Assembly (NCBI GenBank): GCA_013178415.1
Contig: JABLXA010000005.1
Span: 71,369-135,368, forward strand
Direction: 5' to 3'
Origin: Bacillota bacterium
GTDB lineage: Bacteria; Bacillota; SHA-98; Ch115
DNA length: 64,000 bases
The notes under the pieces were generated by a model. It saw only the letters and a list, made by a program, of their open reading frames with translations, was not told the origin of the DNA and made no database searches. Positions 12,333-61,586 of the stretch are shown in pieces. The stretch's first letter is position 1, and every line of letters starts with the position of its first letter. The translations under genes were made by a program, and so were the position numbers.

Positions 12333-12366
12333 GCCGACCTACCTCCATAGATGATTGCGCAGCCAC

Positions 12367-13140: not shown

Positions 13141-13185
13141 ATTGGATCCCCTCCGGCCATTTCCAAAATCTCTCATTCATATTAC

Positions 13186-13215
13186 AAGTATTGCCTTTGA
13201 GAACCCTTTTTATAC
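13186..13215 (-). promoter_or_regulatory. putative sigma-F-type forespore promoter for sigG
   Basis: Minus strand reads GTATA-N15-GGCAATACTT, matching the sigma-F consensus GYATA-N15-GGnnAnAhTR, about 45 nt upstream of the sigG start. This is consistent with spoIIIG regulation in Bacillus. Confidence 0.45.
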
Positions 13216-13309
13216 TTTACAGCTGTAGAGAATAGGAGTGAATCGCGTGGGGAGGCTTCCCAACTGAGGATGAGGAAGGAAAGCGGGGAAGGCGGGCAGA
13301 AGATGGGCC

Positions 13310-14011
13310 CTATTCTGCTCGTCTTATCTCCCGCCGCAGCTTTCGAATAATTCTCTTCTCAAGGCGAGATATGTATGATTGAGATATTCCAAGGAGATCG
13401 GCTACCTCCTTCTGCGTCTTTTCAACTCCGTCACCAAGACCAAACCTGAGCTCCACTATCTTCTGTTCGCGCCCTGTGAGTCTCTTCATGGCAGTATTGA
13501 GCAAAGACTTCTCGAGCTCTTCCTCCAGCCTTCTATAAACTATATCGTTATCAGTCCCCATCACATCGGAAAGCAAGAGTTCATTTCCGTCCCAATCGAC
13601 GTTGAGTGGTTCATCAAAAGATACTTCTGAGCGTATCCTAGAATTTCTTCTGAGATACATCAAGATCTCATTTTCTATACAGCGCGACGCATAAGTGGCG
13701 AGCTTGATCCGCTTTCTCGGGTCGAAGGTGTTTACCGCCTTGATGAGGCCAATTGTCCCAATGGAAACAAGATCTTCAACCCCGATGCCTGTATTCTCAA
13801 ATTTACGCGCAATATATACAACCAGGCGCAAATTGCGCTCTATCAATTCTCCTCTGACACGCTTATCCCCGACAGCAAGGCGCCCCAGGAGCGCAACCTC
13901 CTCGTCAGGAGAAAGCGGCGGTGGCAGTGCCTCACTCGAGCCAATATATAGGATTATCGGCCTAGGCGCCAGTCCGCACCGCATGGCGAAAATGGTCAAT
14001 CTCAGTCGCAT
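13310..14011 (-). CDS. sigE: pro-sigma-E (sporulation sigma factor SigE)
   Basis: [38 protein letters not shown] pro-sequence followed by [42 protein letters not shown], near-identical to B. subtilis SigE. The track ORF extends to 14137, which is probably an over-call. Confidence 0.9.
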
Positions 14012-14120
14012 CGAGGGACCGATCTTCTTCACACGTTTTTTAATTCGCGAAAGGCTACGCGTAACCCATGCATAGACACGATATGCTGAATACATTTTGA
14101 TCTCCCCCCGACAATTCATG

Positions 14121-15026
14121 TCATGACGCTGACTCAAGCACCTCGGGGTGCAGCAACGCAGAAAAGCCCCCTTCAGATGACAGAGAACGCGTATGGATTC
14201 CGATCACTACATTACGGTTTACCATGCCTCTCCTTCCCTCTAGCAGTTTGACACTGTCGGCGCGGAACCCGACTAGCATCCCCTTTTCCTTGCCAATAGA
14301 AGAAAACGGTATCAAACGAAATCTAGATGACCATCCTGAAGAAAGGATGCACTCGGAGGCCGTTCCCAGGTCACCAGACTCAAAGGCCATAAAGGCTCTC
14401 CGTATCGCGTCCGGCAGGATATACACTATCGCCTGATATTCCAGGATTATCACAGGCGCCCCAGTGATAGGGTCACGCAGCCGGTTACCTGTATCAATTA
14501 AAGCGTTGACAGATATCTTTTGTTCGCCAAACCATATTTCTATGGGGACAAAGAAAAGCCAGTCCCGAATCCGTCGGTGGACCAGACCCCACCCTAACTC
14601 CGCTACGATGAGGATGGTCCCCAGCGCTCCTATGAACGCGGGTATGCTAGCTCCGCCGGTCAGATATGAAACGGCCATCCCACCTCCGCCGCCGATGATA
14701 CTGACTACATAGACATAAGCGCATGCCACGCAGAAGCGATCGATCCCCATGTAGCCGAGGCTGATCCACGTTGCGGGAATTATGGTCACAAGAGCCAGGA
14801 TAGCAGCAGGAGGTATTCCGATGATGTCCATAAAGATCAGAGAAAGCAATATCACATCTACTATAGACGCGAAAAGTGAGCCCAGCAGGAGAGAACCGCA
14901 TTTGGTTTTGAGTCCTAAGATCCCCGAGCTCGCCCACAGGACTAAATAGTGCATGATGAAGCTCAACCCGCCGCTAATAGAAATATCAGAGAAGAATGCC
15001 GGCACTCTACCGCCCCCAGTTGACAC
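14121..15026 (-). CDS. spoIIGA: sigma-E processing aspartic peptidase SpoIIGA
   Basis: 301 aa with five N-terminal TM helices and a C-terminal domain carrying the catalytic [25 protein letters not shown] motif. GTG start with a strong AGAGAGGAAG RBS. Confidence 0.85.
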
Positions 15027-15041
15027 CGACTTCCTCTCTTA

Positions 15042-15074
15042 ATTATACGGGTCGGCATACGCGAAATATGTCAT
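15042..15074 (-). promoter_or_regulatory. putative spoIIG-type promoter with an over-long spacer
   Basis: Minus strand reads ATGACA-N21-TATAAT, ending 12 nt upstream of the RBS of spoIIGA. This mirrors the Bacillus spoIIG promoter, which has a 22-nt spacer and needs Spo0A~P. No exact 0A box was seen. Confidence 0.4.
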
Positions 15075-15102
15075 TCGCTGAAGAGAGCCAGGACTTCAAA
15101 TT

Positions 15103-15133
15103 CAAACAAAAAGAGAGGCATGGATGCCTCTCC
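15103..15133 (-). terminator. intrinsic terminator downstream of ftsZ
   Basis: Minus-strand RNA GGAGAGGCAUCCAUGCCUCUCU forms a 10-bp perfect stem with a 2-nt loop, followed by UUUUGUUUG. Confidence 0.6.
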
Positions 15134-15191
15134 TCGCTATAATTCGATTATTCGGACTAACCTGCCGGATACCGGACTCGAGGCCTATCTT

Positions 15192-16232
15192 CTATCTACG
15201 ACCTCGCCTCAAGAAGGCCGGGATCTCAAGATCATCCGTGGCAAAAGGCTTTATCTGAACCTCCTCGAGCCCGATATCATCGCTCCTTCGCTCCTCAAAT
15301 CCCGTGGCTATCACGGTAACTCGGACTTCATCGCGAAGACTCTCATCTATCATAGCCCCAAAGATTATATTGGCATCAGGGTCGGCCGCCTCTGCCACTA
15401 TTTGCGCAGCGTCATTGACCTCGAACAGCCCGAGATTCGACCCGCCGGTGATATTCAGAAGAACACCCTTGGCGCCCTCTATCGACGCCTCGAGGAGCGG
15501 ACTCGATATAGCTGCACGGGCCGCCTGCACTGCGCGATCGTCGCCGCTTGCGACTCCAATGCCCATGATGGCAGAACCTGCATTGCTCATGATAGTGCGA
15601 ACATCAGCAAAGTCCACGTTGATCAGGCCGGGTACAGTTATAAGGTCAGAGATTCCCTGCACTCCCTGACGCAGAACATCATCGGCAATTCTGAAAGCTT
15701 CGAGCATCGATGTCTTTTTCTCCACTACCTGAAGAAGGCGATCGTTAGGGATCGTTATCAATGCATCAACCTTATCGTGCATATTGTCATACCCCTTCTG
15801 CGCTTGAGCCATACGCCGCCGTCCTTCAAACGAAAAGGGTTTGGTCACCACGCCTACCGTGAGACAGCCGATCTCCCTTGCAATAGCCGCGATCACTGGC
15901 GCAGCCCCGGTGCCCGTTCCCCCGCCAAGGCCCGCCGTGAGAAAGATCATATCAGCGCCTTCCATGGCACGCTTAAGGACTTCCTTCGATTCCTCCGCAG
16001 CCTCTTGACCTATCTCGGGATTCGATCCAGCACCCAGGCCCTTCGTACGTTTCTCTCCTATTTGTATCTTCGTCGGAGCTTTGGAAAGAGTAAGAGCCTG
16101 GGCGTCTGTATTGACTGCTATGAATTCTACTCCTGTCAATTCCGACTCTATCATTCGATTTACTGCATTGGACCCTCCACCGCCGACGCCAATAACCTTT
16201 ATGTTTGTGAACTGTTCCATCTGTAATTCCAT
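15192..16232 (-). CDS. ftsZ: cell division GTPase FtsZ
   Basis: [13 protein letters not shown] tubulin signature and [15 protein letters not shown]. The start [10 protein letters not shown] at 16232 is preferred over the track start 16280, which overlaps ftsA. Confidence 0.95.
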
Positions 16233-16258
16233 ATCGAACACGACCCTACCCCTCCCGA

Positions 16259-17521
16259 TCAAAAAAGCTCCTTGAGCCAATCAAGGAATTGATCGAAGAT
16301 ATTCCCCGCCCTGGCGCGAGCCAGGGGCCCGGTATTATTGCCTGCATGCATGCGGGCGCCATATTTGGCAACCCCGATCCCCCCTGCAAGAGAAGGATCC
16401 GACGCTAAATCAGAAAAGCCTATGACATTTCTGGGAGTGCCCAATCTCACCGGCAGGTGGAACACCTCTTGGATCAGTTCCAGCGCGCCGGGCGTATTCA
16501 CGACGCCGCCCACCGCCAACACTCCACATGGGACCATACCACGGACTATGAAGGAATGCACTTGCTGTTCAGCCATTTCCACCAATTCCCTGAGCCTGGC
16601 TTCAATGATATAAGAGAGCATCTCGCCCTTTCCGGCCGGCTGCTGCCTGCCCCTACCTTTGGGAATAAAGTCGCTTCTACCATGATCTGGCTCATTCACG
16701 ACCAGAGACGAATCAATGATCCTTTGCCTGGCAGACGCTATCTCCTCTTGCGCCCGACGATATTCGCGCTTGAGCCGCTCTGCATCCGCCAAAGGGATAC
16801 GGAGCCCGACAGCTAGATCGCTTGTGATATTCTGACCGCCGGCAGGAATCACGGATTGATGCAGGAGACGCCCGTCACCCAGCACAGCCACGTGGGTAGC
16901 GCCCCCGCCTATATCCAGAATGATTACACCGGCATCCTTTTCCTCAGGATCCAAGATCGCTTCGCCGGTGGCCATTATCTGGAGCACCTTCCCATAAACC
17001 TCAAGCCCGGCCAGCTCAACGCTCTTCTGGATATTCTGCGCCATAGTGAGCATTCCCGTGATGATCTGGACCTCCACCTCGAGTCTGGTGCCCTTCATCC
17101 CGACAGGTTCCCTTATTCCTCTACATCCATCGATTATGTATTCTGAAGGCAAGATATGTAAAATCTCACGATCCGGCGGCACCAAAGAAAGCTTTGCCGC
17201 ATGCAATACCCTCTCCACGTCCCTGGAGCTGATCTCATGGTTATCATGGGTAATGGCTATCATGCCATGGCTGTCCTGGCATGTCACATGCAAAGAAGGA
17301 ACGCCCACATAGACGCCTTCGATATCGACGCCTGACATGCGCTCAGCTAGCTCCACAGCTTCGGAGATTGCCTGAGCGGCAGATGCCAGCTCTACCACGA
17401 TGCCCTTCTTGACGCCTTTGGAAGGGGCGACACCGATGCCGATGATTTCCGCGTCTCCTGTCTGCCCTGACTCGATTATAACAACTGCAGTCTTCGTGGT
17501 TCCGATATCCAGTCCCGCCAT
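16259..17521 (-). CDS. ftsA: cell division protein FtsA
   Basis: Actin-like ATPase with [15 protein letters not shown] and the SHS2 insert. ATG at 17521; the track uses a TTG at 17539. Confidence 0.9.
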
Positions 17522-17590
17522 TATTTCCCTGCCAGGCAAATCAAGCCCCCCCTGGCCAGACTCACATCAAAGACTACATTCAACAAGGCC

Positions 17591-47053: not shown

Positions 47054-48991
47054 TCACCCCTGCGGGTGGATTTCCTCATCCTTGAATAATACGCCATCAA
47101 TGAATACCTTGACGTGGATGTTGTCACCATATCCTACTACATGCTGCTCAACTCGTTCGCCAGGCGACGCAAAGGATCTGAAAACCTCGCGTTCCCCGTA
47201 GAAATCATCTACCTTTATCACTACCTCTTGCGAGGATTTTCCCTGGGGAACCGTAACTGTTACCCAGGTCACTGTCGGGGTGGTGGCCGCATCCCGTCCT
47301 TGGGTCGCAAACCCTGGTGTCGTCCCCTGAGGCCTTGAGACAACAAGATCTACACTGCTCTGCGGCTGGACCATGCTTCCTGACTCAGGGTATTGCTGCA
47401 CTACCTCACCGTCCGGCCTTCCTGCGTCCGCCTTGCTCAACTCAGAGCCTACCACGAGTCCCGCAGCCTCGATAGCCTTTTTGGCCGAATCTATATTCAT
47501 CCCCACGACATTAGGCACCTGGACGCCGGGGGGCATCGGCCCTTTACTTATCACTATATCGACGGGCAACCCCCTTTCCAAACGCTGACCAGGATCCGGC
47601 ACCTGCCCAATGATAGCGCCCGCCTGCATATCAGGGCTATAATCCTCGGTTTTCGTTCCCATAGCTAACCCCGCCCTTTCTAGGGCCAGCTGGGCTTCAC
47701 GCACAGTGAGACCAACCAGATCAGGGACAGAGACCATCTCTTTACCTTGACTTACGATCACCCTCACCTTGGTATTGATCTTTACCTTTGTCCCAGCCTT
47801 CGGGCTCTGGGAAATGATATGGTTAACCTCGACTTTATCATCATACCTGGTATCGGCCACTTCGAGCGCGAGTTGACTCTGCGGCAATAAGAGCCTTGCC
47901 TCATCCAGATTCTTGCCGGTTATATCCGGCACTTCAGTCTCGGGGACATATAGTATGGAAGGAAGCTTGAGAAGTCCAAAAACAGTCCCTGAGACCAGGA
48001 TAAGAAAGAAGGTGACCACAGCAACAGCAAGGCCGCCACGTCTCCTTGGCCTGGCCACCTGATCAGGTCTCTTGACGGCCGTGCTTCCGGACTCCAGACT
48101 TTCCCGCCACCTGCGCAGGTCTTCTCCTGTCATGATAGCTGTCGGGGCTTCATCATCTATCGAAGCAATATCAGGAGGAGTGGCAAATGGATCAAGGGCT
48201 CGTGCCATATCCTCAGCTGTCTTGAATCTCTTGGATGGATCCTTCTCCAACGCCCGCATCACCACTCGTTCCAACCCTTCAGGGACATCAGGGTTCAAGG
48301 TACGGGGTGGGACAGGCTTTTCCTGGATATGCTGAATAGCCACTGCAATAGGGCTATCTCCCCGGAAGGGCACACGCCCGCAAAGCATTTCATAGAGGAC
48401 GATCCCGAGGGAATAGATGTCTGATTGTGGTGAAACTTGTCCCCCCCTAGCCTGCTCGGGAGAAAAGTAGCTTACTGTCCCTATTACAGTGCCCGTTTCC
48501 GTAATCGTGTTGGTGCTTGCAGCATGCGCTATGCCGAAGTCAGCGACCTTGACCATGCCATCCTGAGTTACAAGGATGTTATGGGGTTTGACATCACGAT
48601 GAACGATATTGTTTCTATGGGCATGTTCCAGCGCATGACAGATCTCCCGGGCAATCCAGGCGGCATAACCGGGAGGGATGCATCCCTCCCGCTTTATGAT
48701 CTCTTTCAAGGTGGCGCCCTTCACATATTCCATCACAATATAATGCTTATCCCCATCCCGTCCAACGTCATAGATATTGACCACATTTGGATGGGACAGG
48801 CTTGCAGCCGCCCTGCCCTCACGCCGAAAACGTTCCACAAACTCTTCGTCACAAGCAAATTGCGGCCTTAATATCTTGAGTGCGACAATGCGATTGAGAA
48901 CCGAACACCTAGCTTTATAAACCTCGGCCATACCTCCTTCGCCGAGTTTCTCTAATATTGTATATCTCCCTCCTAAGATCTGACCAACCAC
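47054..48991 (-). CDS. prkC: Ser/Thr protein kinase with three PASTA domains (PrkC/PknB-type)
   Basis: Hanks kinase motifs (GEGGMAEVYKA, HRDVKPHN, DFGIA), a TM helix, three PASTA repeats and a C-terminal beta domain. Confidence 0.9.
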   Translation of the reverse strand: MVGQILGGRYTILEKLGEGGMAEVYKARCSVLNRIVALKILRPQFACDEEFVERFRREGRAAASLSHPNVVNIYDVGRDGDKHYIVMEYVKGATLKEIIKREGCIPPGYAAWIAREICHALEHAHRNNIVHRDVKPHNILVTQDGMVKVADFGIAHAASTNTITETGTVIGTVSYFSPEQARGGQVSPQSDIYSLGIVLYEMLCGRVPFRGDSPIAVAIQHIQEKPVPPRTLNPDVPEGLERVVMRALEKDPSKRFKTAEDMARALDPFATPPDIASIDDEAPTAIMTGEDLRRWRESLESGSTAVKRPDQVARPRRRGGLAVAVVTFFLILVSGTVFGLLKLPSILYVPETEVPDITGKNLDEARLLLPQSQLALEVADTRYDDKVEVNHIISQSPKAGTKVKINTKVRVIVSQGKEMVSVPDLVGLTVREAQLALERAGLAMGTKTEDYSPDMQAGAIIGQVPDPGQRLERGLPVDIVISKGPMPPGVQVPNVVGMNIDSAKKAIEAAGLVVGSELSKADAGRPDGEVVQQYPESGSMVQPQSSVDLVVSRPQGTTPGFATQGRDAATTPTVTWVTVTVPQGKSSQEVVIKVDDFYGEREVFRSFASPGERVEQHVVGYGDNIHVKVFIDGVLFKDEEIHPQG

Positions 48992-49047
48992 ATCCAGTCA
49001 CCATCCTTATGCCACGCAGGGGTCCTTGTATCTTCATGCGTGGGGGT

Positions 49048-51786
49048 CTATGACTTTTCTAGGATGCCAACCTGCTCAAGCCAGTATTTCATCAATTCTC
49101 TAGCTATTGGGGCTGCCACGAGCCCACCTGAGCCCCCATTCTCCACCACAACGGACACCGCAATCTGTGGGTCACGGGCAGGCGCAAAACCGATGAACCA
49201 GGCATGGGGCGGACCTGCTGGATTCTGTGCCGTTCCGGTTTTGCCAGCCACCTCGATACCTGGAATCGCGGCTAGCCTCCCTGTACCTTTCGAAACCACA
49301 TCAACCATCATATCACGAATCACCCCGGTAGCGGTAATGGAAGATACCCGCCTGAAATGAGGCCCAATCTTCGCAGCCGAACCAGGCCGGCGTCCGTGTG
49401 GCACTATATCCATGATTATTCTAGGTTCTGGCATCATCCCACCCATTGAGATAGCCGCGGCCACCTGAGCCATAAACAGTGGGGTCACCAGTGTCTCTCC
49501 CTGCCCTATGCCGCTCTCGGCTATGAGACTCCTGGACATGGCCTTCTCCAAAGGGAACCTGGGAGCTGATGCCGGTATTTCTAGAGTTGGCTTCATATGG
49601 AAACCCCATGCTTTCATGGCCTCTTTGAGCGTTGCCTCACCGCATATCTCGGCGATCTCTACAAACGCGACATTGCATGAGCGGGCCAGGGCCATATCCA
49701 GGGTTACCTTTCCATGCCCCTTGCCGTTCCCGCCGGGACCAGGGCAAGATATGACCTGCCCGTCAATCATGATGCTTCCGTTACATTCAAAGGTATCATC
49801 AGCCCTGATCTTGCCTGCATCAAGAGCTGCTATCGCGATAATGGGCTTTAAAGCTGAACCAGGTGGATAGAGCCCTTGAGTAGCCCTATTCAGCAAGGCC
49901 CTCCTTGGGTCGCTCGCGAGCTCATTCCAGGTTTCATCAAGCCTGCATGGATCAAAACCAGGCTCGCTCACACAAGCAAGTATATCCCCTGTGGCTGGAA
50001 AAATGGCCACTATTGCGCCTGGCCTGCCCCGGAGCAGTCTCTCACCTAATTTTTGGAGACCGAGGTCGATGGTGAGAAGAACATCTTTTCCTCGATGCGG
50101 CGGCTGGATCAGAAAATCATCCAGGCCGAGAAGCTCCTTGTTATATGCGGCCTCTATGCCGCTTTTCCCATACCTCGAATGACTATATCCAATGACCTGC
50201 GCAAGAGACTCGGGCACGGTATATCTCCTGATAGGTTTATCTCCTATGACCTCTGAAAACGCAAGGATCTCCCCCCGGCGCGCAAGGATCGAACCCCTTA
50301 TGATCCTTTCTTCCGCGCGCGCCATTCTAGGGTTCTGTGGATCCGCGGCTAGATAGCGGAAACCTGCGCCAGCATAATAGGCCATCACGACAGCGACTAT
50401 GGCAAGTCCACCTGCAGTGAAACCCAAAAACCTCCGGCATGCCTCTTGTATCCCGGGACGGTCGTATCCAGCTTGTTCAACTGCCCCGCTACCCACGCCC
50501 CCAATCCTCGCCAAGATTCCCAGCGCCCCGAAGCATGTTACCATGGAGCTTCCGCCATAGCTGATGAAGGGAGTCGTAACTCCTGTCATAGGAATGATCC
50601 TGAAAACCCCGCCCAATATGATGAGTGTCTGCAGGGAAAATAAGACGCTTATCCCCCCGGCCAAAAGGGCCCCAAATTCGTCAGAGGAGTTCATCGCCCG
50701 GCCAATTCCTTCGGCTGCAAGATAGAAGTATGCCATTAATACCGGAGCTCCCACGATGATGCCAAACTCCTCTAGCAGCGCAGAGAATATGAAGTCCGTC
50801 TCCACTGCCGGTATGGCACGGGGCAGTCCCGCTCCTGGTCCAACTCCTGTGATGCCTCCGGCAGCGATAGCATAGAGTGATTGAATCATCTGGTAACCGG
50901 CTCCCTTGGGGTCTCTCCAGGGATTCAGCCAGACGAGAACACGGTTTCGCACGTGCCCAAAGAGGAGATAGCTCAAAACTCCTCCACAGGCTATCAAAAA
51001 CAGGCCCAGCGCCAAATAAGATGATCTGCCGCTGGCAAGGTAGAGCATCGAAAGATAGACAGCGAATAGCAACAGGGCCGTGCCGAGGTCGCGTTGGAAC
51101 ATAAGGAGCAAAAGGGAGATTCCCCATATGAGAAACATGGGTCCCACATACCCAATCTCTGGCACGAGAACCCCCATTATCCGGCGAGTAGGCGCAGATA
51201 AAAGCCTTCGCGCCTCTGTCAGATACCCGGCTAAGAATATTACCATCAGGGGTTTGGCAGGTTCCGATGGCTCAAGGCTCACCCCGAAGAGCTGGACCCA
51301 GGACTTAGCGCCTCCTATTTCGCGTCCGAAAAGAGGGCCAAGCGCCAAGAGAATGCAAGCAGCCACTCCTATGACATACCGGTATTGCTGCAGCCACGTA
51401 TAGTCTCTTGCCACGCTGGCAACGATGAAGAATACGGCCAGACCGAGGGATATCCATGATAATTGACGCCATATGAGATCCGGCCTCAATCGATATATCT
51501 CAAATAAGCTGATACCACAGAGAAATATGGCGATAGGCAGCAGCGCCTTATCCCTTACCTTGAGCACCTTTTCCTCGATGCTAAGGGCTATAAGGGATGC
51601 CAAGGCAAATATGACCGGTATTGTCCAGTGCCAGCCATCCCCCGTGGCCCCCTGGGCTATCTTTACGCAGATAAAACCTATTGTTCCGGGGAGTATGCAC
51701 AGTCCTGCCAGATTCCATCCGGCAACCTTCCCATTAGACCATAGACCCAACTTCAAGACCCCCGCGCCATCGCATATGCGGTTCAA
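49048..51786 (-). CDS. natural in-frame fusion: SEDS glycosyltransferase (RodA/FtsW-like, aa 1-430) plus class B PBP transpeptidase (aa 453-912)
   Basis: Single 912-aa ORF. The N-terminal half has SEDS hallmarks through PFISYGGSSMV. A 20-aa cytoplasmic linker (about nt 50430-50496) leads into a new TM helix (FLGFTAGGLAIVAVVMAYYAGAGF). Then comes a PBP dimer domain and a transpeptidase with SALKP (SxxK), SCN (SxN) and KTGT. Confidence 0.8.
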   Translation of the reverse strand: MNRICDGAGVLKLGLWSNGKVAGWNLAGLCILPGTIGFICVKIAQGATGDGWHWTIPVIFALASLIALSIEEKVLKVRDKALLPIAIFLCGISLFEIYRLRPDLIWRQLSWISLGLAVFFIVASVARDYTWLQQYRYVIGVAACILLALGPLFGREIGGAKSWVQLFGVSLEPSEPAKPLMVIFLAGYLTEARRLLSAPTRRIMGVLVPEIGYVGPMFLIWGISLLLLMFQRDLGTALLLFAVYLSMLYLASGRSSYLALGLFLIACGGVLSYLLFGHVRNRVLVWLNPWRDPKGAGYQMIQSLYAIAAGGITGVGPGAGLPRAIPAVETDFIFSALLEEFGIIVGAPVLMAYFYLAAEGIGRAMNSSDEFGALLAGGISVLFSLQTLIILGGVFRIIPMTGVTTPFISYGGSSMVTCFGALGILARIGGVGSGAVEQAGYDRPGIQEACRRFLGFTAGGLAIVAVVMAYYAGAGFRYLAADPQNPRMARAEERIIRGSILARRGEILAFSEVIGDKPIRRYTVPESLAQVIGYSHSRYGKSGIEAAYNKELLGLDDFLIQPPHRGKDVLLTIDLGLQKLGERLLRGRPGAIVAIFPATGDILACVSEPGFDPCRLDETWNELASDPRRALLNRATQGLYPPGSALKPIIAIAALDAGKIRADDTFECNGSIMIDGQVISCPGPGGNGKGHGKVTLDMALARSCNVAFVEIAEICGEATLKEAMKAWGFHMKPTLEIPASAPRFPLEKAMSRSLIAESGIGQGETLVTPLFMAQVAAAISMGGMMPEPRIIMDIVPHGRRPGSAAKIGPHFRRVSSITATGVIRDMMVDVVSKGTGRLAAIPGIEVAGKTGTAQNPAGPPHAWFIGFAPARDPQIAVSVVVENGGSGGLVAAPIARELMKYWLEQVGILEKS

Positions 51787-52490
51787 ACTCGGGCTATAAC
51801 TACCGTGATATTATCATGGCCTCCCCTTTCATTGGCGAGATCTACGAGAAAATCCGCAAGTTCTTGTGGATCCTCGATTCTCTTCAGAGCGCCCAGGATT
51901 TCTCCGTCAGAGACCATGCCCGTAAGCCCATCGGTGCAGAGAATTACTCGATCATCTTTCCCGATTTCCACTTTTAAGAGGTCCGGGATCAAGACGGGCT
52001 CCACCCCAAGGGCCTTTGTAATGATATTACGATGAGGATGAAATCTTGCCTCCTCTTCTGTAAGGCTTCCGCTCCTCACAAGCTCCGCGACGATTGAGTG
52101 ATCATCTGTGACCCTCTTCAAAACCCCATGAGATTCAATGTAGGCGCGGCTATCACCCACATGTCCCAAGTAAATGTAACCGTCCGTCAGCGCAGCTGCT
52201 GTGAGAGTGGTTCCCATTCCCCGCCTTTGAGGGTTACTGAGAGATAGCTCATAAACTTTAGCATTTGCATAATGAATGGCCTCATTCAGCCATCCTTCCG
52301 GATCACCAGACCAGACTGGCAGCCTGTCTTTCATCGTCTGGCAAGCTATCTGGCTTGCCACCTCCCCAGCCTGATGCCCCCCCATGCCATCAGCGACCAC
52401 CAGCAAGGATTCACTTACAAAATATGAATCTTCATTTACTTCCCTTACCCGGCCTATGTCGGAGCGCACGCCCAGTTTCATGGCACTCAC
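51783..52490 (-). CDS. prpC: PP2C-family Ser/Thr phosphatase (PrpC/Stp/PstP-like)
   Basis: MKLGVRSDIGRVREVNEDSY...VADGMGGHQAGEVAS, typical PPM motifs. Confidence 0.85.
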   Translation of the reverse strand: MSAMKLGVRSDIGRVREVNEDSYFVSESLLVVADGMGGHQAGEVASQIACQTMKDRLPVWSGDPEGWLNEAIHYANAKVYELSLSNPQRRGMGTTLTAAALTDGYIYLGHVGDSRAYIESHGVLKRVTDDHSIVAELVRSGSLTEEEARFHPHRNIITKALGVEPVLIPDLLKVEIGKDDRVILCTDGLTGMVSDGEILGALKRIEDPQELADFLVDLANERGGHDNITVVIARV

Positions 52491-52972
52491 TCCTTGAGTT
52501 CAAGCATTGTATCCCCTATCAGCAATTGATCGCCTGGTTTGAGAATGGTTCTGCGCCTGAGTCTGCGACCATTGACCAGCGTGCCATTCTTGCTGCCATT
52601 ATCCTCTATGAAGAATTTCCTACCTTTTCGGTAAAGAATGGCATGCCGCCATGACGCGAAAATATCTTTGATTACTATGTCACAGTCCGGCGCCCTACCT
52701 ATGACCATCCTGTCTGCCAAGAAAAACGTTGCGCCGGCTGGAGGATCTCCAGAGGTGCTTATTACAACGATCCTGGGCCCGGATTCCTCCCCGGCTATCC
52801 CCTCCCTGCCGGCTCCGCGCCATGTTCGTATGTGATCGGAAGCATTCTCTGAATGGAAATGGACTGACGTTCCCGTCACGCCAGCCATCACCTCGCGGGC
52901 GAGCCGCCACAAAAATGCGTATATTACGGCAATCAAGAGGAAGCGCCACGCTACCATCAGAAGGGCTAGCAT
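52487..52972 (-). CDS. FHA-domain membrane protein (FhaB/FipA-like)
   Basis: N-terminal TM helix and a C-terminal FHA domain (VIGRAPDCDIVIKD...SWRHAIL...EDNGSKNGTLVNGRRL). Confidence 0.75.
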   Translation of the reverse strand: MLALLMVAWRFLLIAVIYAFLWRLAREVMAGVTGTSVHFHSENASDHIRTWRGAGREGIAGEESGPRIVVISTSGDPPAGATFFLADRMVIGRAPDCDIVIKDIFASWRHAILYRKGRKFFIEDNGSKNGTLVNGRRLRRRTILKPGDQLLIGDTMLELKE

Positions 52973-53791
52973 TCATGATCCCTCCTGGCGCCCAACTCCA
53001 TTCCTGAATTCAAGCAAGACCCCGCCGAGTTTGATGGAATCCCCCGGGCTTAGAACATGCTCGCCCACTCGTCGTTCATTGACAAATGTGCCATTCATGC
53101 TGTTGAGGTCCCGCAAGATGAAAGCCCCTTGTCTATGCAGGATTTCCGCGTGTTCCCGCGAGACGCCAGGGTCAGGTATGACTATGTCATTGGATCTAGA
53201 ACGTCCCAGGCTGACTCGATCTTCGCTGAGCGGATACTGGCTGCCTGAGAGTTCGCCAGACATTATAATCAAGTAGGGACTATCTTCCCTTATTGCCTGC
53301 CCGGGCTGTGCGGGTGGCACACGGTTGAATTCCTTTGTGATCTCTCCCGACCTGGATGTAGCTCCATCTGCATCCACGGGCCCCCCATCTGGATACGCCC
53401 CGATCTCGAGGAGAGTTGCATCTTCCACATACGCAGGCTCTACCTTTATCTCACCGGCCTTCAGGGAGCTTTCCTCAATAAAGGAAATCTCCCGGGGCCC
53501 CACAAATGAATAGCCTCGCCTTTTTGCCTGCATTTCGATGTACGAGCAAAGCTCACGCGAGACAGTGCGCTCAAGGGGTCTGATTTTCTCGACACTGTGA
53601 GGGTGCATCATCACCTTGTAGCAATTTGGAACATATATCCTTGATACACTGACCCGTTTTTCATCTTCCATAGCTCTCATTATGTGCCGCGCAATCTCGA
53701 TAGGATGTGTGCTATAACGATCCCCGCTGTAGAAGAGCTTCCTCATGGCTTCCTCAATGCCTCGTTCTATTTTCTTGAAGAAACCACTCAT
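52973..53791 (-). CDS. FhaA-like protein (DUF3662 N-domain plus C-terminal FHA)
   Basis: N-terminal MSGFFKKIERGIEEAMRKLF... resembles the FhaA N-domain. C-terminal FHA (VSLGRSRSNDIVIPDPGVSREHAEIL...NSMNGTFVNERRV). Confidence 0.75.
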   Translation of the reverse strand: MSGFFKKIERGIEEAMRKLFYSGDRYSTHPIEIARHIMRAMEDEKRVSVSRIYVPNCYKVMMHPHSVEKIRPLERTVSRELCSYIEMQAKRRGYSFVGPREISFIEESSLKAGEIKVEPAYVEDATLLEIGAYPDGGPVDADGATSRSGEITKEFNRVPPAQPGQAIREDSPYLIIMSGELSGSQYPLSEDRVSLGRSRSNDIVIPDPGVSREHAEILHRQGAFILRDLNSMNGTFVNERRVGEHVLSPGDSIKLGGVLLEFRNGVGRQEGS

Positions 53792-55687: not shown

Positions 55688-55875
55688 CCGGGGTGCGACG
55701 GTATCCCTTCCGCCGGACGCAGCATGACCGGGGTATGGATACTCCTCCCGGCGGACGCAGCCTTGCTGCGAGGCTGCTCAGTGATCCTCGGCCCTCAGGT
55801 TATATGGCCTCGGATCAATGCCGCCGATCGGAGTATCTTAACCCCGGATCTGCCGACCACGGATCAATGCCATCC
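55688..55875. repeat. imperfect tandem direct repeats in a convergent intergenic region
   Basis: A 34-36 nt unit occurs twice at about a 40-nt period: 55688-55723 and 55728-55761 (CCGGGGT..CC(G)CCGGACGCAGC). A CGGATCAATGCC unit occurs at 55811 and 55860, with a related CCCCGGATCTGCC between them. Confidence 0.45.
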
Positions 55876-57359
55876 TAAAGCGCGATGCCTAGAAGCGCTA
55901 CCACCGCTAGGAGGATTTTGAGGAGTCCATTTTCTTTGCGAAGCCCTTGGATATCTTTAGCTACGCCGGCCTTGTATGTCTCAAAATCCGAGGAAAGCTG
56001 CCCAAGCTTGGCGTCTATGGCACCATCGGCAGAGATCCTGGCAGCGCGTTCATTCGCTATAACATCTTGCAGGCTCTTCTCAAATCCAGCAACTTGGTTT
56101 CCGATTGCATCCATCCTGCTATTCAAGTCTGCAATCTTTTGGCTCAGCTGAGTGATGCTCTCATTTGCGCTGGCTAGCTCTTTATCTAATCTTTCGCCTA
56201 GAGCGCGAGACTCGCTAGCTGTGTCGGAAAGGCCCTTTTCCAGCGCATCGACTCGACCGGACACCCCGGAAAGGTCCTGTTTGGCATTGGCTAGATCCTG
56301 GGTGACGGCCTTGAGATCTTGAGCGGTAGACTCAAGCTTGGCGGAGAGGTCGGCAAGCTGCGTGCCATGAGCATCTTGTTTTGCCTTGATGTCATCCTGC
56401 TTTGTCCTGATATCGTCTATCTGGGATGAGAGAGCGTCTGCGCGTCCAGAAAGCTCATCGACCTTCGTCGTAAGATCCCTTATGGCGGTCTCTGCCTGAT
56501 TGGCCCGGTTCGCCAACTCCTTCGCGGTTTCCTCCGTTTGATCAGCCCGGCTCGCCAGAGCCTTCGACTCCTTATCCAGGCTGACTACAGCGCCCTGGAG
56601 ATTATCTACTCTTGCCTGCGTCTCAGTGGATTTAGACTCCAAGGCATCGACGCGCCCAGTCAGACTGTTCAAGCCATCATCTAGCTGGCCTGTCTGTTCT
56701 GAAAGCTTATCCACCCGGCTGGAAAGATCAGCCTGGCCCCGGGACAACTCAGCGGACTTTGCCGCCAAAGCCCTCAGTTGATCCTCATGAGAAACATCTG
56801 CAGCGGCCATCTTGCTTTCCAGAGCGGCTATCCTCTCCTCTGCACCGGTCTTTGTGGCCTTCAACTCTTCCCTCAAAGCCTGCAGATCTTTGACTATCTT
56901 TTGAGCTTGCTTCTGTGCCTCTTGCGCATCATAGGTAGCCTTCAGGACATCCTCCTTCATGACACTCAGTACTTTGTTCTGGGACTCAATCTGTTTATCC
57001 ATATTTTCAAGCTGAGTCCCCATTGATACAAGTTCCTGACGAAATTCAGATGAAAGCTGCCTTAGAAGCTGGACATCGCCGGTGGACGCGGCAACCTTGC
57101 CGCTGGCAATCTCATTTAACATCCGCGCGATTACTACGGCCAGGGTATAGCGGTCCACTGGCTTGTTCCCCTGGAATGTCCCATCCTGATATAAAGATAT
57201 GTACCCTTTGTCCACCAGTAGCTTGACGCTTGAATATGCCCAATGATCTGGCGGGACATCCTTGATTTGTTCAGCCATGGCCATAGATCCTGCTAGAAAT
57301 ATTGTCAGCGAAATGATCAACCACATGAATATGTGCTTATGCCTTGTAAATGCTCCCAC
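55875..57359 (-). CDS. Omp-alpha-like envelope spacer protein: signal peptide, SLH domain, about 380 aa coiled coil, C-terminal TM anchor
   Basis: SLH motif IKDVPPDHWAYSSVKLLVDKGYISLYQDGTFQGNKPVDRYTLAVVIARML. A long repetitive heptad-rich region rich in L/A/E/K/Q/S/D. The extreme C-terminus LLKILLAVVALLGIAL is hydrophobic. Confidence 0.7.
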   Translation of the reverse strand: MGAFTRHKHIFMWLIISLTIFLAGSMAMAEQIKDVPPDHWAYSSVKLLVDKGYISLYQDGTFQGNKPVDRYTLAVVIARMLNEIASGKVAASTGDVQLLRQLSSEFRQELVSMGTQLENMDKQIESQNKVLSVMKEDVLKATYDAQEAQKQAQKIVKDLQALREELKATKTGAEERIAALESKMAAADVSHEDQLRALAAKSAELSRGQADLSSRVDKLSEQTGQLDDGLNSLTGRVDALESKSTETQARVDNLQGAVVSLDKESKALASRADQTEETAKELANRANQAETAIRDLTTKVDELSGRADALSSQIDDIRTKQDDIKAKQDAHGTQLADLSAKLESTAQDLKAVTQDLANAKQDLSGVSGRVDALEKGLSDTASESRALGERLDKELASANESITQLSQKIADLNSRMDAIGNQVAGFEKSLQDVIANERAARISADGAIDAKLGQLSSDFETYKAGVAKDIQGLRKENGLLKILLAVVALLGIAL

Positions 57360-57375
57360 AAAAACACTCCTCCCT

Positions 57376-59481
57376 TCATTTTGATACCATCACGACTCCA
57401 TTTATGGCTCGCACAGGCACTTCACGCCCGTCAGCATTCAGTATGCGCGCATTGCTGATGGTAATGGTGGCCTTACCCACTGTCCTGGCAAGGAAATTGA
57501 TACATGCAAAGGTTCCGAAGACGTCTGCCGGCGCAGAGAGACGCCCCCCAATTGCATGCACCTGCCCGGGGACTTCAGATATGGTCCCGCCTCTCCACTC
57601 AGAGAGTTTGTCACCCTCGACGAATACCGTGCCCCTGGACACGCTGATCATCTGCAGGATATCCGGGTCATAGGCTATATCAAGCGTCCCCTTGAGGAAG
57701 TTCTTCACATTAGTGATCCGTATGTAGACAGGGAAGAAACTGCCTGCCTTGACAGGATTCTCGGGCGGCATCACTTCGATCCTGGGCTCGAGCCGTGGCA
57801 CTGCTATCCTGTAATCCATGAAGACTCCTTCTGTATTGTACGCCTCCACCTTTACCCCGCACTCAGCAAAAGAACCAGAATCTCTGGGTTCAAGCTGCCA
57901 CACTACCTTGTAGGACTGCTGGGGGTCCAATGGCCCAAGGAACCTTGAGGCTTTCTCATGGGGAGCCGGACCCAGGAGTGCCCCCCAGGACATCCTCGCC
58001 TGGACCCCATATGCTGTAGACCCGCCCACATTCTTGATGGTAGCGTAAATCTTGAATGGATCAGGGGAAAGCCGCTGATCGACAATCGATAGTTCTCTGG
58101 GGCCGCTCAAGGTGACCTGGAATTTCGGGGCCTCAAGAATGCGCACCTCTCTCGTAACCTGGTTCGGTTCAGCATTTTCGGCCTCTACCCTGACAGAATA
58201 CGAAAGAGTCTCTCCCGGCCTTCCTTTCGGGACCACATCCCAGACTACCTGAGACAATTCTCCCACCTTGAGAATCCCTAGGTCGCGGACCGGGGATTGT
58301 CCGGATTTCAAGCTGAGTCCCTCTGGTAGAGTTATGCTGACTCGTGTGCCAATGGCATCACCCTTCCCTGAATTTTCCACATAACATACAACAGGGAATG
58401 TTTTGGGCTGATCTTTGCCCACAGCCACCTCTGCAGGGGAACTTACCCCAAGAGAGAGATCCCCTGGCGATATACTTATCCCGCCAAGGCCATAGAGAGT
58501 GACATATTCACGTGACTCTCCGGGCGCAAGAGGTTTCGGATCCCAGAATAGAGCTATGGCACTATCCGGTTCATATTCTCCTTTCCTGATGAATTCCCGT
58601 CCGGGAGAAAAGTCGAAATCCCAGACCCCATCGGCAAGGCTCCCCCAATTAGATAGATAGACTCTGTCAGGAGGCGTGGCTCCTTGGCCAGATAATGTTC
58701 CCTGGCTTGTTACGCTTGGGGCGCTAAGTGAATCAAAGGCCTGCCAAAATTCAGGAATATCCGAGACTGTATATGCCGTGTCAGAAATTATGGCATCGCC
58801 CCTCACGCGGAAAGGAGCGCCGTCATTTGCGCCCAACATGGTATCCAACAGGATACGGACCCCTATCTCCCTGGGACTTGTCCCCTCATTAGTCACTACA
58901 TACCGAATCTCTGCAGTATCAAAAAGCCCCGTGGTGCTGCTCCGGACTATCCTGAGGGATTGGATCGCCTCGATATCCTTACTGTCGCCCAGTCTACAAA
59001 TGCTAACAATTTCCTTGCCGTCGACTATATGGGGCCGTGATATCATATCACCATATAAGCCCTTCTCGCCCGCACGCTTTTTTGTGGCTCCTCCATAACA
59101 ATAATCTTTACCATCGATCCGGATGGTGGTGAATGAGGTCCATGGGACCGGTCTGCCATATATTAAAGGCTTATTGTCATCCTCTGATTTTGTGGGATCC
59201 CCGCCTGTTGTATCAAGGGCAAACCTGCACGTGGCATCATCGGTATTATTGACGAACACACGAACATAGTCGTTTGAAAGGGAAACCAGTTCCCCGCCCT
59301 GAGCGCCGGCGCCACCAGAAAAGGCATCCAGCAAGATGAATATGAAAACGAGGATAATCAAGGCCCATTTGGCTCCAGATCGCCCTCCCCTGCAGTTCCT
59401 TCCCCGGGGCCGCGATTTTGTGAGCAGGTTATCGAACCAGGCCAGATCCCCTGAGTTTAAACATATACTTGCAGCCAGCAT
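57376..59481 (-). CDS. large secreted multi-domain beta-sandwich protein with a C-terminal cohesin-like module
   Basis: N-terminal signal anchor (WALIILVFIFILLDAF). Middle CARDB/DUF11-like beta-sandwich repeats (VSITLPEGLSLKSG...YSVRVEAENA; YATIKNVGGS...). The last ~135 aa show a cohesin-like pattern (PVKAGSFFPVYIRITNV...GTLDIAYDPDIL...ITISNARILNADGREVPVRAINGVVMV). Confidence 0.5.
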   Translation of the reverse strand: MLAASICLNSGDLAWFDNLLTKSRPRGRNCRGGRSGAKWALIILVFIFILLDAFSGGAGAQGGELVSLSNDYVRVFVNNTDDATCRFALDTTGGDPTKSEDDNKPLIYGRPVPWTSFTTIRIDGKDYCYGGATKKRAGEKGLYGDMISRPHIVDGKEIVSICRLGDSKDIEAIQSLRIVRSSTTGLFDTAEIRYVVTNEGTSPREIGVRILLDTMLGANDGAPFRVRGDAIISDTAYTVSDIPEFWQAFDSLSAPSVTSQGTLSGQGATPPDRVYLSNWGSLADGVWDFDFSPGREFIRKGEYEPDSAIALFWDPKPLAPGESREYVTLYGLGGISISPGDLSLGVSSPAEVAVGKDQPKTFPVVCYVENSGKGDAIGTRVSITLPEGLSLKSGQSPVRDLGILKVGELSQVVWDVVPKGRPGETLSYSVRVEAENAEPNQVTREVRILEAPKFQVTLSGPRELSIVDQRLSPDPFKIYATIKNVGGSTAYGVQARMSWGALLGPAPHEKASRFLGPLDPQQSYKVVWQLEPRDSGSFAECGVKVEAYNTEGVFMDYRIAVPRLEPRIEVMPPENPVKAGSFFPVYIRITNVKNFLKGTLDIAYDPDILQMISVSRGTVFVEGDKLSEWRGGTISEVPGQVHAIGGRLSAPADVFGTFACINFLARTVGKATITISNARILNADGREVPVRAINGVVMVSK

Positions 59482-59500: not shown

Positions 59501-60586
59501 TCATTCCGAGACGAGGGTTATGCCCCCAAATTGAACTGTTACCTTTTCCTTATCGAAACTGAATGCGACCCGGAGTCGGTAGGGAACTCCTATCCCCTTG
59601 AAAGACCAGCTTCCCTGCATCGTCCTGAGTGCTATAGTATCAATCCGCGCATCGCCAGACGAACTCGCTATCTTGACCCCCAGTAATTTGCCGTTTTGAT
59701 CTATCTCGGCAAGAGCCTCGACAACTCCCCCCACACCTTCATTTTGTGCGTCCTTTGGGTAGACTGGACGGACGCGGGATATTGCAAGCCCCTCACCAGT
59801 GCCGAAATCAGCGACATCAAGGCCCCTCCCGGCCGCATCTTCTTTGCCATTGCCTGCCCCCGGAGTTGTGTTCCCATTAGCGCCGGCTTTGCCGATCCCA
59901 GAACTCGCGCCCGGGCTGCCGTTTGCCGAGCCACCCTTCGCGCCGACACCAGCGCCTCCTTGTCCGGCGCCAGCTCCCGATGCGGCGGCAGGCTTCCCTC
60001 CACCCTCAGCAGGGCCGCTCGCTATGGTCTCCTCTCCGCCAGGGCTTGTCAGCACCTCAGGCTGCTGAACACGTTGTCCCGAAACCTGCCGCTCCACTGG
60101 AGCCTTCGCTGCTACAGGCGCAGGCCCGGCCTTATGTCTTCCTTCACCCTCAAATTTCGGTTCAGGCTGTGACTCGCGCTGTGTTTCAACCCTCGGGCTT
60201 GGCTCTGGTTCTGGTTCCTGTTTCATCACCGGCTCTTGTCCCGCTGCCTGATCCATCTTCTGTTTGGATTCAGGTTTCGGAACCGGCTCTTGGGATGGCG
60301 CCGCTGGTCCGGCAACCTTCTCCCTTTTCACTACAACAGTCGTAGAACCTTTTGAGCCTGATTTTTCAGCTACCCGCGAACCTTTGACTGAAACCGCCGG
60401 CAAAGAAGATTCCGGGCTCGCCTCGGCCAGGATGGCCTCCACAGTCGCCCCATACTCCACCGGATAAATATCCACAGGTGCCCTGAATCCGACCGGCGCC
60501 AAGAATATCACCAATATATGGAGGATTATGGAGACAGCTGTAGAGATACCCATCCGCCGGCCATATCCTGACTGCAGAGATCTCAT
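59501..60586 (-). CDS. tonB: TonB-family energy transducer
   Basis: N-terminal TM helix (ISTAVSIILHILVIFLAPV) and a Pro/Glu/Lys-rich then Gly/Ala-rich linker. C-terminal TonB-like domain (VRPVYPKDAQNEGVGGVVEALAEIDQNGKLLGVKIASSSGDARID...). Follows exbD with a 6-nt gap. Confidence 0.7.
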   Translation of the reverse strand: MRSLQSGYGRRMGISTAVSIILHILVIFLAPVGFRAPVDIYPVEYGATVEAILAEASPESSLPAVSVKGSRVAEKSGSKGSTTVVVKREKVAGPAAPSQEPVPKPESKQKMDQAAGQEPVMKQEPEPEPSPRVETQRESQPEPKFEGEGRHKAGPAPVAAKAPVERQVSGQRVQQPEVLTSPGGEETIASGPAEGGGKPAAASGAGAGQGGAGVGAKGGSANGSPGASSGIGKAGANGNTTPGAGNGKEDAAGRGLDVADFGTGEGLAISRVRPVYPKDAQNEGVGGVVEALAEIDQNGKLLGVKIASSSGDARIDTIALRTMQGSWSFKGIGVPYRLRVAFSFDKEKVTVQFGGITLVSE

Positions 60587-60592
60587 CTTCCA

Positions 60593-61003
60593 TCACCTCG
60601 CAGGCCGTCGATCGGCGGCCAGGGCGATACGAGAAGCTCCAACGTCGCGGGCAGTGTCCATGACTGCTATGATATCCTCATACAATACCTGGCGGTCAGC
60701 GCGAATTATGACTGTCTCACCCGGGTCTCGTGAAACATGCTCCTTGATCTGATCCCTAAGCTCGGGAATGGTAGTCCTCCTGCCATTGAAATATAGACGC
60801 CCGGTCCGGTCTATGCTGACTATCATCTGACCTGCCCTATATGGCGCTGCAGTAACCGCTCTGGGAAGATTGATCTGCAGGCCCGTGGGAGCGGTCTTGA
60901 AACTGGTAAAAAGTATGAAGAAGACGATGAGAAAAGTCATGACATCCATCAACGGTATGAGATTAATGGCCGGCAGCCTGCGCTTGCTTCGTTGAAACCT
61001 CAA
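60593..61003 (-). CDS. exbD: ExbD/TolR biopolymer transport protein
   Basis: 136 aa with INLIPLMDVMTFLIVFFIL TM helix and a conserved Asp. A periplasmic domain follows. Confidence 0.8.
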   Translation of the reverse strand: MRFQRSKRRLPAINLIPLMDVMTFLIVFFILFTSFKTAPTGLQINLPRAVTAAPYRAGQMIVSIDRTGRLYFNGRRTTIPELRDQIKEHVSRDPGETVIIRADRQVLYEDIIAVMDTARDVGASRIALAADRRPAR

Positions 61004-61586
61004 CAGGCCTCACCTCACCTGACAGGAGATTCACCAGTTCTGACGCAAAATCGCTCATGTCCCTCGCTCGTCGATCTATCATCCCGGAGATCCAGGTATG
61101 AAGAAGGACGGTCGGAGCTGCTATCATGAGACCGGCCGCTGTCGTTATCAAAGCTTCTGCGATCCCTGCGCTCAGGGCAGCAGGTTCAAGTAGATGAGCC
61201 TGAGTCGAAAGGACTTTGAATGAATCTATTATGCCAAGGACAGTTCCGAGGATTCCGAAGAGCGGGGCCACCGCGGCAATGGCTTCAAGCCACGACAGCC
61301 CGCGTTCCATCAAGTATATCTCCCTTTCTCCAGCGGAACGCAGCTGCTCCTCGATTTCTGATCTGGGTTTGCCATACATCATCAAGCCGGTGGTCATGAG
61401 AGCACCCATCTGGCCCCTGAACTGCTCGACTGCCGCTATTGCGTCACCGATCTTTCCATGCTCAAGGGCGATCGTCACTGCCCTCAGGGCACGATCTGGA
61501 TCTGATCTTGTGCGAATTAAGTAGTAGAGTCTTTCGAGAGTGATAGCAACGGCGAAAATAGAGCATAAAAGCAGCGGGACCATCAT
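60963..61586 (-). CDS. exbB: MotA/TolQ/ExbB proton-channel protein
   Basis: Three TM helices and the TolQ/ExbB C-terminal region. The start MMVPLLLCSIFAVAITLERL at 61586 follows GGGTGGA. The track ORF (to 61754) runs through an upstream TATAAT. Confidence 0.75.
   Translation of the reverse strand: MMVPLLLCSIFAVAITLERLYYLIRTRSDPDRALRAVTIALEHGKIGDAIAAVEQFRGQMGALMTTGLMMYGKPRSEIEEQLRSAGEREIYLMERGLSWLEAIAAVAPLFGILGTVLGIIDSFKVLSTQAHLLEPAALSAGIAEALITTAAGLMIAAPTVLLHTWISGMIDRRARDMSDFASELVNLLSGEVRPVEVSTKQAQAAGH

Follow-up and report, generated by a model that had tools for sequence, protein, structure and literature searches.

What kind of envelope protein is encoded at positions 55875..57359 on the minus strand of a 64,000-nucleotide stretch of DNA from a Bacillota bacterium (contig JABLXA010000005.1; the whole stretch is referred to here as the window), and which layers of the envelope does it join? 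The initial annotation described the 494-residue product as Omp-alpha-like, with an S-layer homology (SLH) head, a coiled-coil rod of about 50-55 nm and a C-terminal membrane anchor. We consider it fairly probable that the protein, hereafter the tether, is, in this spore-forming Bacillota of diderm type from biogas reactors, a Sec-exported and probably homotrimeric link between cell wall and outer membrane, of the same kind as SlpA, OmpM and Omp-alpha. This reading is supported by the architecture of the protein, the homology of its head and proximal coil to trimeric tethers of solved structure, the periodicity of its rod, its pattern of conservation and its gene linkage. The tether does not belong to a free-standing Omp-alpha/Omp-beta pair; it is the last gene of a module with the order exbB-exbD-tonB-cohesin protein-tether.

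The tether gene was assigned from the list of open reading frames (ORFs), Pfam and homology to SlpA and OmpM, and ends with a stop codon at 55875-55877 (minus strand, as are all features of the gene given below). The ORF list places its start at a GTG, which is preceded at a spacing of 7 nucleotides by a strong ribosome-binding site, GGGAGGAG (57367..57374), read from the sequence directly after the stop codon of the upstream gene. The gap between that stop codon and the tether start is 16 nucleotides, implying co-transcription. A scan for promoters and terminators returned counts no higher than expected from shuffled sequence. Residues 1-29 (57273..57359) form a signal peptide with a basic n-region, a hydrophobic core, WLIISLTIFLAG, and a cleavage site between A-M-A and E, all judged by inspection only; cleavage sites of the AxA type are kept in an alignment of tether homologues, and residues 7-25 were modeled as a helix by AlphaFold2. 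The protein contains no Cys, and therefore has no lipobox and is not a lipoprotein. Residues 30-92 (57084..57272) hold a single SLH domain, the predicted head for binding the wall or a secondary cell-wall polymer, recognized by Pfam (PF00395) over residues 32-70 with an E-value of 1.9e-8; no other ORF in the window bears an SLH domain. The rest of the sequence matched dozens of unrelated Pfam coiled-coil families, and comprises a rod of 386 residues (93-478; 55926..57083), delimited by periodicity, heptad register and the AlphaFold2 model, and a C-terminal hydrophobic anchor seen in the sequence (residues 479-494, LLKILLAVVALLGIAL; 55878..55925). In two near-identical metagenome contigs (L081, 12198-13607; L082, 5209-6618) the tether has been called as a 469-residue protein beginning at Met26, a call that drops the signal peptide; both contigs keep the GTG start and the strong ribosome-binding site in front of it. 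As a result of such miscalled starts, database entries of the tether family may look non-secreted.

The rod is devoid of Pro and Cys, is dominated by Ala, Leu, Asp, Ser, Gln, Glu, and Lys, and contains 5 aromatic residues, with no Trp anywhere in the protein. Its hydrophobic periodicity peaked at 3.52 residues with a power of 7.4, compared with 2.1 for the 99.9th percentile of shuffled sequences. Viterbi assignment of heptads required five discontinuities over the 386 residues, namely four 4-residue stutters and one skip, and the longest unbroken register extended from residue 194 to residue 393; positions a and d were occupied mostly by Leu, Val, Ile, and Ala. AlphaFold2, run on the monomer with a 14-sequence alignment (predicted local distance difference test score, pLDDT, 66), returned a helix from residue 93 to 493, broken by short stretches of low confidence at 225-240, 331-340, and 425-434, and no strands beyond the SLH domain. 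Foldseek comparison of this model with the PDB was uninformative, the best match being to an SLH domain with an E-value of 0.17, which is no surprise for a model of a lone helix. With 0.148 nm per residue, the length of the fully extended rod would be approximately 57 nm, close to the length given in the initial annotation. The coiled-coil propensity that it had assumed is thus evident in 386 Pro-free residues, their period, the small number of register discontinuities and the predicted helix, and an Omp-alpha-like architecture of SLH head, long coiled coil and no beta-barrel is supported by Pfam, periodicity and AlphaFold2 alike. The last 16 residues, which it had called purely hydrophobic, include one Lys as the sole non-hydrophobic residue.

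Comparison with solved structures using phmmer placed the tether among known wall-to-membrane proteins. Residues 29-244 matched residues 30-253 of Deinococcus radiodurans SlpA (7zgx) with an E-value of 5e-16, and the SLH domain with the onset of the coil matched Veillonella OmpM (8bys, 8bz2, and 8bym; E-values of 1.6e-10 to 6.6e-10); the SLH domain aligns to those of SlpA, OmpM and B. anthracis Sap. SlpA and OmpM are each built as a homotrimer whose wall-binding head is assembled from single SLH domains, one contributed by each of the three chains (PMC9388160; PMC10628300). The rod of the tether contains three R-h-x-x-h-E motifs (RIAALE at residue 176, RVDALE at residues 236 and 369), compared with 0.08 expected by chance; all three are in register, with Arg at heptad position g, and one copy aligns with RIAALE of SlpA. 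This motif is reportedly the trimerization motif described by Kammerer and colleagues. Given the in-register motifs and the homology to solved trimers, a parallel homotrimer is the best inference from the sequence. The SLH domain and the first ~200 coiled-coil residues are clearly homologous to SlpA and OmpM, with one SLH domain per chain. The two proteins differ from the tether in ending with a C-terminal beta-barrel, whereas the tether ends with a hydrophobic helix, and its rod exceeds the OmpM stalk several-fold in length. Consistent with this, no beta-signal was found at the tether C-terminus and its aromatic content is low, as is that of its syntenic orthologues (~2-4%), unlike in the barrel-type matches. 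A scan of one genome per species separated two classes of SLH protein: one with ~2-8% aromatic residues (2-4% in the closest relatives) and a hydrophobic-helix end, comprising L001-L052 and the Thermotogae proteins L066 and L071, and another with 10-16% aromatic residues and a C-terminal Phe or Tyr, corresponding to the OmpM-type barrels of Negativicutes, Wallbacteria, Armatimonadota, and others.

The layout of the tether is that of Omp-alpha (OmpA1 of Thermotoga maritima), which has a signal peptide, a single SLH domain, a coiled-coil rod of 45-50 nm and, at its C-terminus, a transmembrane helix, is predicted to be a trimer, is enriched in the toga fraction and has been assigned to the ~50-nm fibers between peptidoglycan and toga (PMC10160955; PMC9388160). 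The tether shares the signal peptide, the single N-terminal SLH domain, the long coiled coil and the C-terminal hydrophobic helix, and it likewise lacks a barrel; the same search that recovered its relatives also recovered proteins of Omp-alpha layout from Thermotogae metagenome-assembled genomes (L066 and L071). Beyond the SLH domain and the proximal coil, the similarity between the two falls to 25-28% over low-complexity coil. Omp-alpha is a protein of Thermotogae, whereas the tether is encoded in a Bacillota; the preprint by Witwinowski reported the split system for Thermotogae, Bipolaricaulota, and Fraserbacteria, and credited diderm Firmicutes with OmpM. In addition, no beta-barrel Omp-beta gene adjoins the tether, whose neighbors are an immunoglobulin (Ig)/cohesin protein upstream and a convergent histidine phosphatase downstream, and the adjacent Omp-beta is poorly conserved even in Thermotogae (PMC10160955). 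TolQ/TolR/TonB-like and Ig/cohesin neighbors, in turn, are absent from the Thermotogae loci.

The recurring peptide blocks of the rod had been taken to suggest internal DNA repeats and a length-variable gene. The blocks themselves were confirmed, with R[VA]DxL occurring five times (residues 215, 236, 250, 306, and 369) and a self-similarity z of ~7.5 at offsets 7/14/21. They reflect heptad periodicity and not recent DNA duplication: Tandem Repeats Finder detected in the tether gene a single weak array of 2.2 copies of 21 nucleotides, and a search for DNA repeat pairs within the gene yielded short pairs of chance size only, so that the proposed internal repeats did not materialize and length variation by recombination inside this gene was ruled out. 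Variability in length failed to appear between close strains, the one available being a biogas-fermenter metagenome contig in which the tether gene is 98.4% identical at the nucleotide level (28 mismatches, 0 indels), and was pronounced between species, where proteins in one syntenic position are between 184 and 886 residues long and their rods between 76 and 684 residues, or ~11-102 nm. Among relatives at least 60% identical, indels of 11, 14, 28, 32 (=21+11), 42, 56, and 70 residues were observed, together with one 3-residue indel in a single orthologue. The sizes from 11 to 70 fit heptad and hendecad periodicity, preserving the phase of the coiled coil. Tandem repeats of 42 nucleotides (14 residues, two heptads), in ~5 copies in orthologue L015 (5549-5754) and 2.2 copies in orthologue L007 (8810-8901), make a mechanism of rod lengthening visible; the window gene lacks it.

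Conservation is concentrated at the two ends of the protein. Mean identity to the window tether across the family was 71% for the SLH domain, 46% over the C-proximal rod (residues 431-478) and 64% over the C-terminal tail, and the middle of the rod (residues 161-430) was 14% identical with 41% gaps. The length of the tether was not significantly correlated with that of the TonB-like protein encoded two genes upstream (r = -0.24, n = 34 loci, some ORF starts being uncertain), and in L033 and L036 a rod of ~80 nm stands beside a TonB-like protein of 256-258 residues. Of the idea that the rod is a ruler or spacer, the ruler is weakened by the length range and the missing correlation, and the variable middle is indeed spacer-like.

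The genes directly upstream of the tether set it apart from Omp-alpha. The first, immediately adjacent (57376..59481, minus strand), encodes an exported all-beta protein of 701 residues, designated Coh701, which was characterized by weak Pfam matches to Cohesin and CARDB, AlphaFold2 and Foldseek. Its AlphaFold2 model (pLDDT 88) comprises an N-terminal helix, a beta domain at residues 65-340, two Ig-like domains and, at the C-terminus, a cohesin domain; no family for the 65-340 domain was found in Pfam or NCBIfam, and Foldseek gave generic Ig and cohesin matches with none specific for this domain. Coh701 is far better conserved than the tether, with 665 homologues at E<=1e-10 (38-62% identity) that include cultured Halanaerobiales. 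Nothing else in the module is as conserved as its 65-340 domain, in which dozens of residues are invariant, and the database label "cellulosome anchor protein" for the family is probably misleading. Next comes a TonB/TolA-like protein (59501..60586, minus strand; Pfam TonB_C, E-value 2.6e-10; NCBIfam tonB_Cterm) consisting of an N-terminal transmembrane helix, a ~230-residue linker rich in Pro, Glu, Lys, and Gly, and a TonB_C domain at residues 273-361. It is preceded by an ExbD/TolR-like motor subunit (60593..61003, minus strand; Pfam ExbD, E-value 1.7e-30) and an ExbB/TolQ-like motor subunit (60963..61586, minus strand; Pfam MotA_ExbB, E-value 1.4e-28). The longest ORF of the latter reaches 61754; the likely start gives 207 residues, as called in the near-identical contig L081. 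Further upstream, the window encodes a MiaB-like radical-SAM enzyme and a diacylglycerol-kinase-like protein.

The order exbB/tolQ-like, exbD/tolR-like, tonB-like, Coh701 and tether was present at ~50 of the 80 loci found through the SLH motif, even where tether identity had fallen to 27%, and Coh701 lay immediately upstream of the tether in every examined locus carrying the module; among these SLH-derived loci, none of the barrel-type or Thermotogae loci carried it. To remove the selection bias of sampling from the SLH side, metagenome contigs were also searched for the Coh701 family. The ORF directly downstream of Coh701 was an SLH protein with a hydrophobic C-terminal tail in 64 of 66 distinct cases, the remaining two being SLH proteins broken by masked bases, and upstream of Coh701 lay genes for ExbB (43/43), ExbD (42/43), and TonB (39/43). 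The closest tether relatives were found in uncultured "Bacillota bacterium" genomes from anaerobic digesters, and more distant carriers were labeled Limnochordia, Limnochordales, and Halanaerobiales; in a set of species-representative genomes the best counterpart was no closer than 43% identity. The module is also present in a cultured member of the Halanaerobiales, Selenihalanaerobacter shriftii, with a tether of 221 residues and a predicted rod of ~16 nm, and in "Peptococcaceae bacterium 1109," with a tether of 440 residues; for other Halanaerobiales the rods come to 26-31 nm. A gene for a SurA-like periplasmic chaperone lies directly upstream of the module in S. shriftii (L084, 4441-5490). 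The architecture of the tether is already known from Omp-alpha; the literature searched, a coverage that is incomplete and leaves an earlier description possible, yielded no account of the module, of the invariant coupling of the tether to it, of the spread of the tether over Halanaerobiales and Bacillota of Limnochordia type, or of Omp-alpha-type tethers in Firmicutes.

From these observations we infer a trimeric state, an outer-membrane location, an extended conformation and a functional coupling to the motor. In the proposed arrangement, three chains would join in a single parallel coiled coil, the SLH domains of the three, one from each, would together make a head that binds peptidoglycan or a secondary polymer, the rod, ~57 nm long if fully extended, would cross the periplasm, and the three short C-terminal helices would sit in or against the outer membrane, replacing the beta-barrel of OmpM. 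The two ends would be the specific parts of the protein, and the middle a spacer evolving by whole heptad or hendecad units. The tether would most likely serve as the wall- and outer-membrane-binding end of a five-gene envelope system.

Several points weigh against this arrangement. The diderm nature of the window organism is deduced from its relatives and the TonB/ExbBD genes only. Barrel tethers of the OmpM type have been reported from Limnochordia and Halanaerobiales in published surveys (PMC9388160), and the protein described here may accordingly not be the main envelope tether. The spread of rod lengths over ~11-102 nm without co-variation of TonB is hard to fit to a simple perpendicular spacer; rods of ~80 nm beside a TonB of 256-258 residues imply either that the rods are not perpendicular or that TonB need not reach the outer membrane. 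The rod may also adopt a folded-back, shorter form, given the breaks in the monomer model, and OmpM stalks occur in compact and extended states (PMC10628300). The breaks were not adopted as a sign of a folded-back bundle, since the heptad register continues in phase through those at 231-236 and 330-334; the caveat remains. Finally, Sec export, a C-terminal helix and a terminal Lys could equally describe a type I protein of the inner membrane.

This last point leads to the alternative that survives best, in which the C-terminal helix acts as a stop-transfer sequence in the cytoplasmic membrane, with the terminal Lys inside, and the rod links the inner membrane to the wall through the SLH domain. 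The tether has a signal peptide and a C-terminal hydrophobic helix, with a terminal Lys that is conserved in most homologues, it is co-encoded with ExbB/ExbD/TonB, all three of them proteins of the inner membrane, and no established pathway is known that brings a helical anchor to the outer membrane. An uncharged hydrophobic tail of 13-32 residues is kept in nearly every syntenic orthologue; in the window subfamily, however, the uncharged core from Lys481 to the C-terminus is only 13 residues long, which is short for an inner-membrane span. The distance from inner membrane to wall is, moreover, small compared with the 38-100 nm rods of most carriers, and Omp-alpha, the sole studied protein of such architecture, is enriched in the toga, or outer membrane, fraction (PMC10160955). 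Because of the 13-residue core and the Omp-alpha precedent, we favor placement in the outer membrane and regard an inner-membrane anchor as unlikely.

A second alternative keeps the SLH anchor and gives up the perpendicular rod: the rods would lie oblique or parallel to the wall and form a periplasmic scaffold, a mesh under the outer membrane, so that rod length would not set the gap. Nine-fold length variation at a fixed syntenic position, TonB lengths that do not co-vary and the ~80-nm rods of L033 and L036, which exceed the reach of their TonB proteins, are all in its favor. Against it, both ends of the tether are conserved around a middle that behaves as a pure spacer, and Omp-alpha fibers in Thermotoga join wall and toga (PMC10160955), making such a mesh decidedly improbable. 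That the protein is a conventional S-layer or surface-display protein of a monoderm Gram-positive, or the substrate of a sortase, exosortase or similar enzyme acting on a C-terminal sorting signal, is very improbable despite the common occurrence of SLH domains in Gram-positive surface proteins, as the tether has one SLH domain of SlpA/OmpM type followed by coiled coil, rather than three in tandem with a large surface, lattice or self-assembly domain, no LPXTG was found in its sequence, NCBIfam sorting-signal models gave 0 matches at E<=10 to the C-terminal 58-59 residues (disposing of a sorting signal that the initial annotation had held open), and the gene is constantly linked to TolQ/TolR/TonB-like genes in a module that occurs in bona fide outer-membrane-bearing Halanaerobiales.

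If the tether joins wall and outer membrane, what might a motor be doing beside it? In the window, the ExbB/TolQ-like subunit scored 87 bits with the NCBIfam tolQ model versus 63 with exbB, and the ExbD/TolR-like subunit 71 bits with tolR versus 47 with ExbD, all below the curated cut-offs. The tolQ and tolR models were the best for the motor subunits at six of six loci each (the window and five others), with 83-119 bits for tolQ versus 52-74 for exbB, and 58-85 bits for tolR versus 42-63 for ExbD. The order of roles in the module mirrors that of tolQ-tolR-tolA-tolB-pal, namely motor, motor, force transducer, exported periplasmic protein and wall binder, and its fifth protein would, like Pal, bind the wall and, by analogy, the outer membrane. 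There are also differences. The motor scores are far below the curated tolQ and tolR cut-offs (221 and 127 bits, respectively); the fourth protein consists of Ig and cohesin domains, whereas TolB is a beta-propeller; and the fifth is an SLH coiled coil with no lipobox and no OmpA-like domain, and is thus not Pal, an outer-membrane lipoprotein that binds the wall through an OmpA-like domain where the tether uses SLH.

Earlier genome surveys bear on this comparison. The Halothermothrix orenii genome encodes ExbB, ExbD, and a putative TonB together on its chromosome, with no TonB-dependent receptor detected, and a different function was suggested for them as a possibility (PMC2626281). In a 2025 survey, Negativicutes were the only diderm Firmicutes with Ton systems and Gracilicutes the only group with Tol-Pal, and other outer-membrane stabilizing systems were said to be still awaiting discovery (PMC12204202). 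Halanaerobiales and Limnochordia are reported to be without Pal and TonB-dependent receptors. We tentatively raise the possibility, itself doubtful, that the module is an unrecognized analogue of Tol-Pal, powered by proton-motive force, in two lineages of diderm Firmicutes, Halanaerobiales and Limnochordia. In such a system the TolQ/TolR-like motor and the TonB/TolA-like arm would act through the Ig/cohesin protein in the place of TolB, which would in turn act on the SLH coiled-coil tether in the place of Pal, and the whole would regulate attachment or constriction of the outer membrane. If true, the outer half of Tol-Pal would have been replaced in Terrabacteria by convergence, with non-homologous proteins. 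The Tol likeness is a lead, not a demonstration.

The remainder of the window carries a Firmicutes-type gene set, including genes for RNase Y, CinA, RsgA, and a PASTA kinase, and almost every gene is on one strand. A cluster for division and cell wall, encoding FtsA and FtsZ, is followed by spoIIGA, two sigma factor genes that are presumably sigE and sigG, and spoIIR (11616-17539, minus strand). The presence of spoIIGA, the sigma factor genes and spoIIR directly after ftsZ/ftsA indicates that the carrier of this outer-membrane-type module is an endospore former. A second cluster (47054-53791, minus strand) encodes an FhaA-like FHA protein, a second FHA protein, a PP2C phosphatase, a fusion of FtsW/RodA with a class-B penicillin-binding protein in a single chain of 912 residues, and a PASTA Ser/Thr kinase; its order mirrors the actinobacterial order fhaA-fhaB-pstP-rodA-pbpA-pknB, here in a Firmicute and with rodA and pbpA fused. 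This cluster is kept in the closer relatives L002-L007, L010, L014, and L015. The window also contains a gene for an HlyD-family periplasmic adaptor (9322-10623, minus strand), of a type usually tied to trans-envelope export.

In the debate on the origin of Gram-positive bacteria from two-membraned ancestors, attachment of the outer membrane to the wall has a central place, and current accounts of it in Firmicutes rest on the barrel-type tether OmpM. The locus described here adds what is probably a second tether, anchored by a helix as in Thermotoga, in two lineages of diderm Firmicutes. It offers candidate answers to what the "orphan" TonB/ExbBD genes of Halanaerobiales may do, and to whether Terrabacteria possess an energized system that stabilizes the outer membrane. 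The natural series of tether lengths, 184-886 residues at one syntenic position and including cultured species, would provide a ready test of whether such rods set the width of the periplasm.

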